A DNA stretch of 64,000 nt. Source: Candidatus Jordarchaeales archaeon (GTDB taxonomy: Archaea; Asgardarchaeota; Jordiarchaeia; Jordiarchaeales; Freyrarchaeaceae). The translations under genes and the position numbers were made by a program. Position 1 is the stretch's first letter. Each line of letters opens with the position of its first letter. Of the stretch, positions 2,550 through 62,698 are shown in pieces. The notes beneath the pieces are model-generated. The model worked only from the letters and a program-made list of their open reading frames with translations. It had not been told where the DNA came from and ran no database searches. The stretch is from positions 9,192 to 73,191 of the forward strand of contig JAWCFL010000005.1 in the NCBI GenBank assembly GCA_038858525.1, given 5' to 3'.

Positions 2550-3935
2550 TTAAAGGGTAGCTAGCATAAGGATGTCGTTTACATTAGTGCCTGTTGGTCC
2601 AGTAATTATGAGCCCATCATTTATCTTCTCAAAGAAACTTGTGGCGTCATGTCTTCGCAAGTAATCTTCAGCTCTGATTCCATGCTTTTCTCCTTTCTCT
2701 ACAGTTTTTCCATCTACAAGGGCTCCTGCAGCGTAAGAGACACCATCCAAGCCGTCAGTGCCAAAGCTAACCACAAAAACGTTTTTTAATCCTGATATTT
2801 TTAGGGCTGCACTTAAAGCAAGCTCCTGATTTCTCCCACCAATCCCAGCATTCTCACTTATGGTTACCGTCGTTTCGCCACCCATCACGATTAAAGCAGG
2901 TCTTTGAAGCGGCTCTTGATTTAACGCGACGCTTTTAATTATCCCCGCCGCCAAGCAGCCGACTTCCCTCGCCTCGCCTTCCATGTGTGTAGTTAGGATA
3001 AGTGAGTGCACCCCTCTTTTGTTAGCTTCATTGGCCACTGCAGTGCACGCCCCCCTATTCGTCGCCACAAGAATATTCTGAACCCTTTTGAAAACTGGGT
3101 CGCCAGGCTTCAATGTCTCCTCAACTCCTCCTTCCGCCCCCCTGATAAGCCTCTCTCTAACTCGGCTTCCACATTTATCCCATACTCCATATGTCTTCAG
3201 AACATTTATGGCATCCGAAAAGGTTGTTGGGTCCGGCGCTGTTGGCCCTGAAGCCACGTCCTCTAGCCTGTCACCTACAACATCGGACACTATTAGACTT
3301 ATGACACGTGCAGGATAAGCCATTTTTGCTAGCAGTCCACCTTTAACCTTTGAAAGATGTCTTCTAACAACGTTGATCTTTCCTATGTCCGCTCCGCTCT
3401 TGAGGAGGGCGGCTGTAACTTCTTGAATGTCTTGAAGTTCTACACCATCGGCTGGGAGAGTTAGCATAGCTGAGCCGCCACCCGAAATCAAACATATAAC
3501 GAGGTCATCTTTTCCTGCTTCCTCCAGCAGTCCAACAACCGCTTCTGCTCCCCTAATGTTCTCTTCACTTGGGACAGGATGTGCAGCCTCAAAAAGTCGA
3601 ATAAATCTCGTGCTGAACATGTTTGAAGTACCCTTTTGTATGCAGACAGCGCCATCAACTATTAATTCTCCTAAGATCTCCTCTAAGGCTTCTGCCATAG
3701 CGCCACTCGCCTTACCGGCTCCTACAACATAAATGTTCTCGACGTTTCGCAGAGGTATGCGCTCACTAAATACAGTTAAGCATTCATCATTAAGCTTCAC
3801 AGACTTCCTAATGGCGTCTCTCGGGTCGGAAACGCTTATGGCAAGCTCCACTAGGTCCAGGAGCAAGCTTCGCTTATCCCCCTCCTCATCTTCCAAGAGC
3901 TTTTCACGATTCTTCACGATAATTCTTACCGCCAT
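2550..3935 (-). CDS. glycerate kinase (MOFRL family, hydroxypyruvate reductase/glycerate 2-kinase type)
   Basis: 461 aa. 'VVGAGKASGAMAEAL', 'SGGGSAML' and 'GTDGxDG' motifs typical of MOFRL glycerate kinases. Confidence 0.85.
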   Translation of the reverse strand: MAVRIIVKNREKLLEDEEGDKRSLLLDLVELAISVSDPRDAIRKSVKLNDECLTVFSERIPLRNVENIYVVGAGKASGAMAEALEEILGELIVDGAVCIQKGTSNMFSTRFIRLFEAAHPVPSEENIRGAEAVVGLLEEAGKDDLVICLISGGGSAMLTLPADGVELQDIQEVTAALLKSGADIGKINVVRRHLSKVKGGLLAKMAYPARVISLIVSDVVGDRLEDVASGPTAPDPTTFSDAINVLKTYGVWDKCGSRVRERLIRGAEGGVEETLKPGDPVFKRVQNILVATNRGACTAVANEANKRGVHSLILTTHMEGEAREVGCLAAGIIKSVALNQEPLQRPALIVMGGETTVTISENAGIGGRNQELALSAALKISGLKNVFVVSFGTDGLDGVSYAAGALVDGKTVEKGEKHGIRAEDYLRRHDATSFFEKINDGLIITGPTGTNVNDILMLATL

Positions 3936-3946
3936 TTATTCTCCCT

Positions 3947-5368
3947 CTAAAATATTAGTGAGACCTCCTCAAGCGCCCTCAGAACCCGCCTTCCCCTCTG
4001 TGTCAATTTGAAGTACTTTCTCCTTCCCCTATAATATTCCTCGATGAGTCCCCTCTCCTGAAGCTCTCCTAGATGCTGGTAAACTGCCTGAATCGAGAGA
4101 CGCTTGCCGATAGACTTCCAAATTTCGTAACCGTACGACTCGCCGATCTCTAAAAATCTCAGTATTTCGAACTTTGTCTTAAAACCCCCCCTAGACTTCA
4201 CCCCCCTTCTTCCACCATCTGCCAGCGCGTCTATAATGTACGGGTCCTTCAAGCCGCTTGCCGTGATGAGACAGACCGCAACTTCTGAATGGTCAATAAA
4301 TCCTTCATCCTTCATCTTTCTGAGACAGGCAACCGATGCGGCGCTTGCCGGCTCCGAGAATATCCCCTCAGCTTTAGCTAGGAGCTTTTCAGCCTCTATT
4401 ATCTCCCTGTCGGTAACCGTGACTATAAAACCGCCACTCTCCTCAACTGCTCGGGCCGCTAGCAAACCGTAGGCGGGCATCAGAGAAACGAGAGGGGACG
4501 CTGCTGTTGCAGGCTTCTCAACTCTTCTAACCCTAACTTTTCCCCCCTCATTGATTAAAGTGGCACATCCATCCGGCTGAACCAGAACCATCCGGGGAAT
4601 ATGATCCACCACGCCGAGAGTTAAGCACTCCTTGACGCCCTTCCAAATAGAGTAAGCCGTATTACCTGTTCCTGTAGGGACTATTATCACGTCAACATTC
4701 CTGCAAGCCTCTAAAACTTCATGAGAAATGGTCTTCTGAGCTTCAACAGATAGGGGGTTAAGCTCCGGCGTGGCTTGGTAGTATCCGTCAGCGGCCCTTT
4801 CCGCCTCAGCTATCGCGTCATCTATAACGTCTCCACTTCTCACTATATGGCCGCCGTAAATGTACATTTGAGCCAGCTTACTCACGTTAACGTTTCTTGG
4901 AGTTATGATCGTGCATTTAATTTTTGCTTTAGCACAGTAAGCAGCAGCTGAGGCACCAAAGTTCCCGTACGAGGCACAAATCAACTTTTTTGCGCCAACG
5001 TCAAGGGCGTTAGAGACAATCAGGGAGGCCGCTCTGTCTCTGTAAGAGTTTGTCGGGTTAGCTGTCTCGTCTTTAAGTAAAACCTTTCCTCCCCCCATCG
5101 CCTCGGCAAGCTCCTTTGCCTCCCTAAGCGGTGTGCCTCCCTCCCCCATGCTCACAATGTTCTCCTCGCTAATCGGAGGAAGGATTGGACGATACCTCCA
5201 CATGCCACGCCTGTCGCTGTAAGGTAATTTGATCTCCAAGTAATCATAAACATAGTCAAGTATACCCCCACACTTGTCGCATCTCGCCACAGGCGGAAAC
5301 GGTTTCTTCTCGCTTCCGCACAACGTGCACCGTAGGTCAACGTTCAACTTAATCCCCCTCGCACACAA
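3947..5368 (-). CDS. threonine-synthase-like PLP-fold protein fused to a C-terminal PadR-type winged HTH; the Schiff-base lysine appears replaced by arginine
   Basis: N-terminal Zn ribbon 'CTLCGSE...CDKCGG'. TS-like core ('NPTNSYRDRAAS', 'ASYGNFGASAAAYCAKAKIKCTIITP'). C-terminal ~90 aa 'YGYEIWKSIGKRLSIQAVYQHLGELQERGLIEEYYRGRRKYFKLTQRGRR' is PadR-like. 'SYRDR' sits where TS has 'SFKDR'. Confidence 0.8.
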   Translation of the reverse strand: MCARGIKLNVDLRCTLCGSEKKPFPPVARCDKCGGILDYVYDYLEIKLPYSDRRGMWRYRPILPPISEENIVSMGEGGTPLREAKELAEAMGGGKVLLKDETANPTNSYRDRAASLIVSNALDVGAKKLICASYGNFGASAAAYCAKAKIKCTIITPRNVNVSKLAQMYIYGGHIVRSGDVIDDAIAEAERAADGYYQATPELNPLSVEAQKTISHEVLEACRNVDVIIVPTGTGNTAYSIWKGVKECLTLGVVDHIPRMVLVQPDGCATLINEGGKVRVRRVEKPATAASPLVSLMPAYGLLAARAVEESGGFIVTVTDREIIEAEKLLAKAEGIFSEPASAASVACLRKMKDEGFIDHSEVAVCLITASGLKDPYIIDALADGGRRGVKSRGGFKTKFEILRFLEIGESYGYEIWKSIGKRLSIQAVYQHLGELQERGLIEEYYRGRRKYFKLTQRGRRVLRALEEVSLIF

Positions 5369-5412
5369 CTTTATTAGGAGTTCGAGTTAACATAAAGGTT
5401 GCTTTAGCGCAG

Positions 5413-61633: not shown

Positions 61634-62698
61634 TTAGCATACACGGGGGATAGGTTCGCCGTATGGCTCTTCTATTATTCGTTTTCCCCCGACGACTGTT
61701 TCCATTATGACGTATCCTGGTCTCTCCTTTCGAACCTCTCCTATAATGCTGGCGTTTCTACCATACTTTGTTGCTTTAACCTTTTCGAGGACCTCCTCCG
61801 CTCTTTCAGGTCTTACCGCTATTATCGCTTTTCCCTCACAGGTTACCTCGAGCGGGTCTATTCCAAGCATTTCTGATGCTGCAACTACTTCCTCCCGGAT
61901 AGGTATGTCCTCCTCTTTGATCCATATGCTGACTCCATTTTTCTTAGCCCAGTCGTTTAGGGCTGCAGCGAGTCCTCCTCTTGTCGGATCCTTCATTGCC
62001 GTTACGCCGCCGACGCTTAAGGCTGCTTTGATCGTCTCATTGAGGGGAGCAACATCCGACTCCAGTTGTGTCCCGAAACTTATACCTTCTCGCGCGGCGA
62101 GGAGCGCTATTCCATGGTCGCCTACGGTTCCCGTAACTATTACCTTGTCGCCAACCTGTATGCCGCTATCGCAAATTACCTTTCCTTTGGCAATCCCGAT
62201 CCCTGTGGTAGCCAGAACAATCTTGTCGAGGTGTCCTTTTGGCATCACCTTCGTGTCTCCTGCGATCAGGGCGACCCCGGCTTCGTTACACGTGTCGCTT
62301 ATAGACCTAACTATCCGCTTCAAATCAGCTATGGGGAACCCTTCCTCCAATATCATGGAGCACGTCACGGCTATAGGGTCTGCTCCCATCATAAGAACGT
62401 CGTTAACTGTACCCGAAATGGCAAGCCGTCCAAGGTCGCCTCCTGGGAAGAATATTGGATCTACAGTGTGTCCATCCGTGGTCACAACAATGTTATAGCC
62501 CCCTAAAGGTATAGTTGCTCCATCGTCTAGCTCGTCCAGCCCTATTCCCCCGCCAACCCTTCGCCTATCGATCAATGGAAGGATGACCTCCTTGATCAGC
62601 TTCCCCATGGCAGTTCCACCCGCTCCATGAGCTAGCTCAATGACCTCTTGAAGCTCCGTCGCCATCACCCCCTGCAACATACATCTAATTTGGCTCAA
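61634..62698 (-). CDS. hypE: [NiFe]-hydrogenase maturation protein HypE
   Basis: 354 aa AIR-synthase-related fold ending in the conserved '...PRVC' C-terminal cysteine. Confidence 0.85.
   Translation of the reverse strand: MSQIRCMLQGVMATELQEVIELAHGAGGTAMGKLIKEVILPLIDRRRVGGGIGLDELDDGATIPLGGYNIVVTTDGHTVDPIFFPGGDLGRLAISGTVNDVLMMGADPIAVTCSMILEEGFPIADLKRIVRSISDTCNEAGVALIAGDTKVMPKGHLDKIVLATTGIGIAKGKVICDSGIQVGDKVIVTGTVGDHGIALLAAREGISFGTQLESDVAPLNETIKAALSVGGVTAMKDPTRGGLAAALNDWAKKNGVSIWIKEEDIPIREEVVAASEMLGIDPLEVTCEGKAIIAVRPERAEEVLEKVKATKYGRNASIIGEVRKERPGYVIMETVVGGKRIIEEPYGEPIPRVC

Follow-up and report, generated by a model that had tools for sequence, protein, structure and literature searches.

Bacterial regulators of the PdxR/MocR type, GabR and TauR among them, use a domain derived from a pyridoxal 5'-phosphate (PLP) enzyme as sensor, fused to a winged helix, and act on palindromic or repeated operators. 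The regulon of bacterial PdxR comprises pdxST, pdxK and pdxU, and Archaea are reported to have no MocR regulators (PMC5320631); nor is any archaeal regulator named in a survey of PLP pathways from 2023 (PMC9997740). Two other groups of described proteins come close to the gene reported here, namely threonine synthase (ThrC), with solved structures from Aquifex (2ZSJ), Thermus (1UIM/1V7C) and M. tuberculosis (2D1F), and the PadR family (PadR, LmrR), whose members are proteins of ~110-180 aa with an N-terminal winged helix-turn-helix (wHTH) and no enzyme-like domain. To our knowledge, the mode by which vitamin B6 supply is regulated in Archaea is not known. In this study, a 64-kb stretch of Jordarchaeales DNA (the window, to whose forward numbering coordinates refer) was analysed, and a gene on its minus strand (3947..5347) was found to encode a threonine-synthase-like domain, with arginine in place of the Schiff-base lysine, fused to a PadR-type wHTH. 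Judging from sequence comparison and gene context, we hold with moderate confidence that this protein is a transcription factor and not an enzyme, that is, a vitamin-B6-responsive PadR-type repressor with a lysine-less ThrC-fold sensor, acting in a PdxR-like way; its ligand, its DNA binding, the sign of the regulation and the transfer of this model to the window copy are what we infer.

The longest open reading frame (ORF) at the locus lies on the minus strand (3947..5368) and gives 473 aa from the first TTG. A preliminary description of the stretch, made from its letters alone, had taken the gene as a single ORF of 473 aa; the ORF is borne out, but it runs on the minus strand, and public gene calls place the start at the TTG at 5347, 7 nt downstream of the ribosome-binding site GAGGGGGA (5353-5360, minus strand), which gives a product of 466 aa with a TAG stop at 3947-3949. 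A protein from Ca. Jordarchaeales archaeon (P0001) is 100% identical to the window product, and the identical 466-aa protein was found on 16 contigs from independent samples with the same neighbours in all, thus the fusion is not an assembly or frameshift artefact. These contigs, together with fused orthologues in 443 species genomes (one genome per species scanned), rule out an artefact of this kind, including the case considered in the preliminary description, in which the wHTH tail would be a separate ORF made by a frameshift.

The window protein is made up of four parts, a zinc ribbon, a full PLP fold of the threonine synthase type, a disordered linker and a PadR-type winged helix, all encoded on the minus strand. 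The N-terminal zinc ribbon (CTLC...CDKC with Cys7, 10, 23 and 26; 5270..5329) is common to archaeal-type threonine synthases and is the same in their unfused forms; in the alignment of the clade to which the window protein belongs (the Arg clade, see below), C23 and C26 are invariant and C7 and C10 at least 90% conserved. The fold-type II PLP domain (4262..5155) is matched by Pfam PALP PF00291 over residues 72-369, counted in the 473-aa reading (E 6e-66), and by threonine synthases in the PDB (E 1e-58), with 36-37% identity to the Aquifex, Thermus and M. tuberculosis enzymes. The wHTH (3977..4165; YGYEIW...AVYQHLGEL...RKYFKLTQRG, then a terminal helix) is matched by Pfam PadR PF03551 over residues 402-464 of the same reading (E 2e-9, 37.6 bits against a gathering cut-off of 27) and by the PadR structure 9qbc_A (E 4e-5), and it shares with the PadR family the YGYE, recognition-helix and RKY(F/Y)xLT motifs and the C-terminal helix. 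Its recognition-helix motif, VYQHL, is invariant in the Arg clade. From 44 family sequences, AlphaFold gave a model whose predicted local distance difference test (pLDDT) score is 86.4, with both the enzyme-like and the winged-helix domain confident, a linker predicted to be disordered between them (pLDDT <50 at residues 365-387; 4187..4255) and a helix-helix-helix-hairpin (strand-strand)-helix topology in the tail (residues 387-465), and the top Foldseek matches of the model were solved threonine synthases (target-normalised TM-score ~0.85, probability 1.00). The full threonine-synthase-like fold-type II core and the C-terminal PadR-like winged helix seen in the preliminary description were thus recovered by profile and structure matches, and the structure prediction that it had suggested shows both with confidence. 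Compared with ThrC, the window protein has ~100 extra residues, linker plus wHTH, while compared with the PadR family its wHTH stands C-terminal to a pseudo-enzyme of 360 aa. The difference from the MocR proteins is of another kind, since these combine a fold type I aminotransferase-like domain with an N-terminal GntR wHTH and keep the PLP-binding lysine, whereas the archaeal proteins combine fold type II with a C-terminal PadR wHTH and the window protein is without the lysine. The archaeal family and PdxR are unrelated, and their resemblance would be one of function only.

When the window protein was aligned by HMMER to three solved threonine synthases (2zsj, 2d1f and 1uim, from Aquifex, Mycobacterium and Thermus), its NPTNSYRDRA fell on NPTGSFKDRG, with Arg103 (codon 5039..5041, minus strand) exactly on the Schiff-base lysine (Lys61 in Thermus numbering), confirming the replacement that had been read from the sequence before. 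Of the 120 best homologues in the databases, 119 are fused and have arginine at this site, thus the substitution in the window is not due to chance, and it is invariant over 44 aligned Arg-clade sequences. Six residues of Thermus ThrC that we take to contact the phosphate and carboxylate of the substrate O-phosphohomoserine are also replaced in the window protein (T85Y, T88F, N154P, S155E, R160S and N188T; PDB alignments), and in the alignment of representatives R160 and T88 are replaced throughout the fused proteins as well. The equivalents of F60, D62, R63, N87, the phosphate loop and T317 are conserved, so that the window protein keeps the stacking aromatic, the D-R after the lysine site, Asn87, the glycine-rich loop that corresponds to the loop for the PLP phosphate in ThrC (PTGTGNT, 4658..4678, minus strand; G226 and G228 invariant in the clade) and Thr317, which is Thr362 of an ITASGLKD segment (4244..4267, minus strand; PDB alignments) and likewise invariant. 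Asn87, the loop and Thr317 are presumably PLP contacts of ThrC, Thr317 of the Thermus enzyme being, as we assume, the partner of the pyridine nitrogen.

The same picture was obtained when pocket conservation was counted over the top 150 cluster representatives, again in Thermus numbering. Lysine is absent from 73 of the 75 fused representatives and present in 67 of the 68 unfused ones (350-445 aa). The fused proteins have Arg (18), Leu (18), Ile (15), Val (6) or Thr (5) at this site and, more rarely, Phe, Met, Ser, Tyr, Asn or Ala. Apart from the lysine, the pocket is as conserved in the fused block as in the true enzymes: F60 is F or Y in 74/75 fused representatives, D62 and R63 are each found in 75/75, N87 in 67/75, the two phosphate-loop glycines in 71/75 and 75/75, and T317 in 72/75. 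That the lysine alone was lost, repeatedly and by varied substitutions, with the pocket kept, is what would be expected of a domain that binds a cofactor-like ligand without carrying out chemistry.

The family is large, with 1108 matches below 1e-30 among 1.84 billion cluster representatives. The 443 genomes with fused orthologues are mostly those of Bathyarchaeia, and also include Jord-, Freya-, Baldr-, Odin- and Promethearchaeota. Orthologues sharing both the fusion and the substitution, which the preliminary description had proposed to look for, are at hand in the 119 homologues with arginine. When 149 of the top 150 representatives were placed in a tree built from the PLP domain by neighbour joining, all fused proteins formed one block, with an Arg clade and a hydrophobic clade as its two branches. 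The window protein belongs to the Arg clade (Bathyarchaeia, Asgard, Thermococcales), with 45-89% identity to its members over at least 95% of the length, and shares 45-48% full-length identity with the Bathyarchaeia regulators. The sister clade, from Baldr-, Aig- and other archaea, resembles the Arg clade in architecture, in its place in the tree, in the VYQHL recognition helix and in its neighbours, which are genes for the S component of an energy-coupling factor (ECF) transporter (ECF-S) or pdxST; it differs in having Leu/Ile/Val/Met rather than Arg at the lysine site, in a regulator gene divergent from the ECF-S gene, and in its own palindrome, CCTATATATAGG. An unfused, Lys-bearing thrC (NPTGSFKDR, ~410-430 aa) lies divergently beside the fused gene in 9 of 80 loci, all from Bathyarchaeia. 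Five further Lys-bearing ThrC-like proteins of 614-622 aa (P0198, P0218, P0251, P0254 and P0259) carry a different C-terminal extension of ~200 aa and thus represent a further architecture on this enzyme.

Neighbouring genes, clustered across these 80 genome loci, connect the family with vitamin B6. In 65 of 80 loci, a gene on the same strand downstream of the fused gene (median gap 69 nt) encodes a membrane protein of Pfam PF07155, the ECF S-component family. Its sole match in the PDB is 4hzu_S (E 6e-8 with a single sequence, E 2e-18 with a 40-sequence profile), and the profile matched none of the RibU, ThiT, FolT and BioY chains there, even at E <10. The chain 4hzu_S is Lactobacillus brevis HmpT/PdxU2, a reported pyridoxamine/pyridoxine transporter (PMC4860826), and PdxU and PdxU2 both belong to PF07155 (PMC9997740). 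Linkage was counted with both scans pooled, at loci flanked by 1.2 kb or more on both sides and for neighbours within 400 nt, and unfused Lys-bearing genes from the metagenome scan seeded with the hydrophobic clade served as the control set. Among 86 fused genes, 67 have an ECF-S gene and 2 have pdxST beside them; both counts are 0 for the 25 unfused genes. At two Arg-type loci (L078 and L080) pdxS-pdxT stands in place of the transporter, and it directly follows the hydrophobic-clade regulator of a Baldrarchaeia locus (L091), while PF07155 genes adjoin the fused genes of Aigarchaeota, Helarchaeota and Lokiarchaeota. These neighbour types match the bacterial PdxR regulon (pdxST, pdxU), and the gene context of the fused family points to vitamin B6. 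A gene of the AIR-synthase family was also seen after ECF-S or pdxST in ~50 of the 80 loci, all from Bathyarchaeia (L013-L088; for example L082 12234-13247 and L078 13045-14049); its product resembles HypE, SelD and ThiL, scores under all curated cut-offs, and could be a B6-salvage enzyme, e.g. a kinase.

The conserved palindromes that accompany the fused genes are candidate operators. In the Arg clade, a 22-bp palindrome, TAGTATAGTT-NN-AACTATACTA, is almost always found in the spacer between regulator and ECF-S gene, close behind a TATA-like box, with a few bases left to the ECF-S start codon. When the 105 loci with a fused gene, 1.37 Mb in all, were scanned with at most 4 mismatches, 91 copies were obtained, all downstream of the regulator gene; 84 of them, in 75 of the 105 loci, lie no more than 200 nt past the regulator stop codon and the other 7 at 205-1225 nt downstream. 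The copies ahead of pdxS in L078 and L080 are counted among the 91, and the match in a Freya locus (L011), located within the coding sequence for ECF-S, is probably due to chance. The variants of the palindrome have 172 mismatches, of which 23 are of the G-T type, with only 13 symmetric double changes, so that sequence is kept and not pairing, which favours a DNA operator over an RNA hairpin; the hairpin reading was rejected as it showed no RNA-type covariation. Upstream of 65 non-redundant Arg-type genes, exact palindromes (half-sites of 4-6 nt, spacers of 0-15) showed no excess over shuffles, and an expectation-maximisation motif search of the same regions yielded nothing beyond motifs of the TATA type and one weak palindrome, nAACTnnCTTTAAAGnnAGTTn, that at 6.8 bits was not trusted; the operator candidate of the Arg clade is found on the downstream side of the regulator gene instead. 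In the hydrophobic clade, regulator and ECF-S gene are divergent and 47-81 nt apart, and the spacer holds CCTATATATAGG after a TATA-like ATATATAAGC. With at most 2 mismatches, CCTATATATAGG occurs in 9/16 loci of this clade (L096, L098, L100, L118, L124, L129, L141, L167 and L093) vs 0.76% of random 210-nt windows, and in 7 of the 9 it is 7-31 nt upstream of the annotated regulator start, the exceptions being 34 nt upstream (L099) and 5 nt inside the annotated ORF (L096).

Two side observations concern these sites. A second whole or half copy of the 22-bp palindrome stands in tandem in the regulator to ECF-S spacers of L074, L081, L139, L054, L055, L035, L064 and L087, suggesting that two dimers bind cooperatively. 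Lysine is retained in a small number of fused proteins (the P0124 cluster of Bathyarchaeia with 62 members, P0127/P0292 of Lokiarchaeota including L090, and L116, L128, L131 and L136); they have the same ECF-S neighbour, three of them with the 22-bp palindrome, and are either ancestral-like forms or reversions.

How such a regulator might work can be proposed from these features. Dimerisation would be expected as in threonine synthase, and two winged helices would thereby be offered to a palindromic operator. The old cofactor pocket would bind a form of vitamin B6 reversibly and non-covalently, most likely PLP, with pyridoxine 5'-phosphate (PNP) or pyridoxamine 5'-phosphate (PMP) as possible ligands, and its occupancy would set the strength of DNA binding. 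The putative operator of Bathyarchaeia and of other Asgard archaea stands between the TATA-like box and the start codon of ECF-S or pdxS-pdxT, and for this reason a co-repressor model is proposed, in which the operator-bound dimer would block use of the promoter when B6 is plentiful. A site between TATA box and start point is the usual position of an archaeal repressor. The preliminary description had read the gene as a pseudo-enzyme turned sensor and regulator, a reading supported here by the loss of the lysine with the fusion, by the true thrC genes that coexist with the fused gene in relatives, and by the palindromes beside it.

Several points weigh against a regulator of vitamin B6 genes. 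Neither palindrome is present in the 64-kb window (best position weight matrix score 4.4 bits vs 16-38 for true sites), nor are PF07155, pdxS or pdxT, and the closest relatives of the window locus, L009 and L010 (88% and 70%), have no B6-gene adjacency and no such gene behind the 22-bp palindrome; if the predicted role is right, the B6 targets of the window regulator must lie beyond the window. Across the family, no B6 gene is near 17 of the 86 fused genes, and the Thermococcales copies lie between aCPSF1 and an amino-acid-kinase-family gene. We infer B6 as the substrate of the ECF-S neighbour from a modest similarity to PdxU2, PF07155 also holds riboflavin transporters, the name HmpT was first assigned to the transport of a thiamine precursor, the gene after ECF-S is often ThiL/HypE-like, and the divergent true thrC adjoining the fused gene in nine Bathyarchaeia loci would also fit a role in the threonine pathway.

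On this last ground one may think of a transcription factor that senses a metabolite of the threonine pathway or of other amino-acid metabolism (O-phosphohomoserine, homoserine or threonine) and controls amino-acid biosynthesis. Its sensor domain descends from threonine synthase, and 2 kb downstream of the regulator the window has a gene for a LeuA-type isopropylmalate/homocitrate synthase. However, the residues for the phosphate and carboxylate of the substrate were replaced while the cofactor pocket was kept, the neighbours that span the clades are the PdxU-like ECF-S (67/86) and pdxST and not thr genes, and all palindromes in the 105 loci are on the ECF-S/pdxS side, not the thrC side; we therefore regard such a factor as unlikely, and the window itself holds no threonine-pathway neighbours. 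The earlier view of a ligand sensor derived from threonine synthase stands as to the derivation, but the likely signal is vitamin B6 and not a threonine-pathway metabolite. It also seems improbable to us that the protein regulates an ECF-type micronutrient transporter in response to an effector other than B6, such as riboflavin or a precursor of thiamine. The family name of PF07155 refers to riboflavin S components, 4hzu_S was originally called HmpT, a hydroxymethylpyrimidine transporter (PMC4860826), the AIR-synthase-family gene after ECF-S has similarity to ThiL, SelD and HypE, and the ECF-S neighbour has weak NCBIfam matches to folate and riboflavin S components, but its PDB profile matches PdxU2 only, the sensor is a PLP fold with conserved PLP-contact residues, and pdxS-pdxT stands behind the same palindrome in L078/L080 and after the sister-clade regulator in L091.

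A PLP-binding carrier, a storage or homeostasis protein or a transporter partner, with the winged helix serving protein contacts or general nucleic-acid binding, would be compatible with a kept pocket without the catalytic lysine, with the linkage to B6 genes and with the lack of an operator for the window copy in the scanned 64 kb; we consider it very unlikely in view of a canonical PadR wHTH above the Pfam threshold with an invariant recognition helix, and of two clade-specific palindromes next to the gene, each in a promoter position. A working threonine synthase or other PLP enzyme with a built-in DNA-binding regulatory tail is hardly credible, as its full-length match to NF004170 (381.7 bits) and to other ThrC models, its largely intact PLP pocket and the lysine kept in 2/75 fused representatives are set against a Schiff-base and general-base lysine turned to Arg (invariantly in the 44 Arg-clade sequences, and in 119/120 best homologues), ThrC model scores all under their curated cut-offs, replaced substrate-phosphate residues, and separate Lys-bearing thrC genes beside the fused genes of relatives.

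The name threonine synthase is nevertheless what the databases give to this architecture. Three NCBIfam threonine synthase models were considered (TIGR00260, NF004170 and NF006050), and the window protein is below the curated cut-offs of all of them (381.7 vs 421 for NF004170; 236.5 vs 303; 158.3 vs 167.1). The 442-position profile of NF004170/PRK05638, "threonine synthase", aligns with residues 12-467 of the window ORF, wHTH included, which means that the architecture has been catalogued, but under an enzyme name. In this respect the preliminary description, for which no described family had this architecture, does not hold. Thermococcales proteins of the fused architecture are taken here as members of the NF004170 family, whose profile includes the wHTH as in the window protein; the window protein itself, with its score under the cut-off, is in the Bathyarchaeia/Asgard branch and not in the Thermococcales branch. 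Among the Thermococcales proteins with the fusion (P0420-P0484; Pyrococcus, Thermococcus and Palaeococcus), 62 of 65 have Arg at the lysine site, and those of Pyrococcus horikoshii, P. abyssi and Thermococcus onnurineus carry the name "threonine synthase", thus the enzyme name of these proteins is probably wrong. In Thermococcus chitonophagus (L089 8001-9326, CP015193.1), 5 nt separate the regulator gene from the aCPSF1 (KH/beta-CASP) gene ahead of it, and neither a B6 gene nor a palindrome was found within 8 kb. In open-access papers and preprints, we found no description of a ThrC-like/PadR regulator or of an archaeal B6 regulator, though subscription journals may hold one.

Whether the fused proteins of Bathyarchaeia, most Asgard, Aigarchaeota and Thermococcales are one archaea-wide regulator family, built once from threonine synthase and turned by loss of the lysine into a reversible sensor of PLP or B6 vitamers, seems to us evenly balanced. 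If true, this would be the first archaeal vitamin B6 regulon, made up of a PdxU2-like transporter, pdxST and two neighbour enzymes, and the convergent, unrelated counterpart of bacterial PdxR; the AIR-synthase-like and the MOFRL-type kinase-like neighbours could be missing steps of B6 salvage. The fused family is a concrete candidate for the archaeal B6 regulator, with predicted operators and target genes, and it offers a putative case of conversion from enzyme to sensor in which the catalytic lysine alone was removed while the cofactor pocket remained under selection. What would be new is a transcription factor for B6 genes with a PLP fold taken from an enzyme, assembled from unrelated parts and without the lysine, whereas the architecture is known, as "threonine synthase". 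Hundreds of archaeal genomes, including those of Pyrococcus and Thermococcus, give the fused gene this name, a systematic misannotation on the present reading, which can mislead metabolic reconstruction in Asgard and Bathyarchaeia genomes, e.g. calls of threonine prototrophy.

As to the locus of the window itself, the regulator shares an intergenic region of 65 nt (5348..5412) with divergent GINS-MCM genes. Besides the ribosome-binding site, this spacer holds a TATA-like CCTAATAAAG (5369-5378) and an inverted repeat, CAACCTTTAT-N17-ATAAAGTTG (5366-5401), which is kept in the 88% relative L009, evolutionarily so close that this conservation says little; the upstream regions of Jord/Freya relatives have no convincing motif in common with the window promoter. 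The window has a single gene of the AIR-synthase family, at 61637-62698 (minus strand); it encodes a bona fide HypE (414.7 bits vs a cut-off of 251.6) and is no orthologue of the Bathyarchaeia neighbour. No second PALP gene is found within the 64 kb. A TrpB2-like PALP gene (460-490 aa) occurs near the MCM block in Jord/Freya relatives (L175 9939-10846, minus strand; L007 2687-4069), and is neither a threonine synthase nor related to the regulator.

On the other side of the regulator, a glycerate-2-kinase-like gene (DUF4147/MOFRL; 2550..3935, minus strand) with its own ribosome-binding site begins 11 nt past the regulator stop codon. No terminator-like site was found between them, and given the 11-nt gap the two genes are probably co-transcribed, as a two-gene unit headed by the regulator. 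In Jord/Freya relatives, a PdxU-like ECF-S gene comes directly after the same kinase-like gene (L175 3492-4880; L177 3528-4922; L180 2541-3923), and in L175 a PdxU-like gene takes the slot before GINS-MCM that the regulator fills in the window, which suggests that the regulator, kinase-like and PdxU-like genes travel together in this lineage. The three seem to form a module in the Jord/Freya lineage, and the substrate of the MOFRL-type kinase may be other than glycerate.

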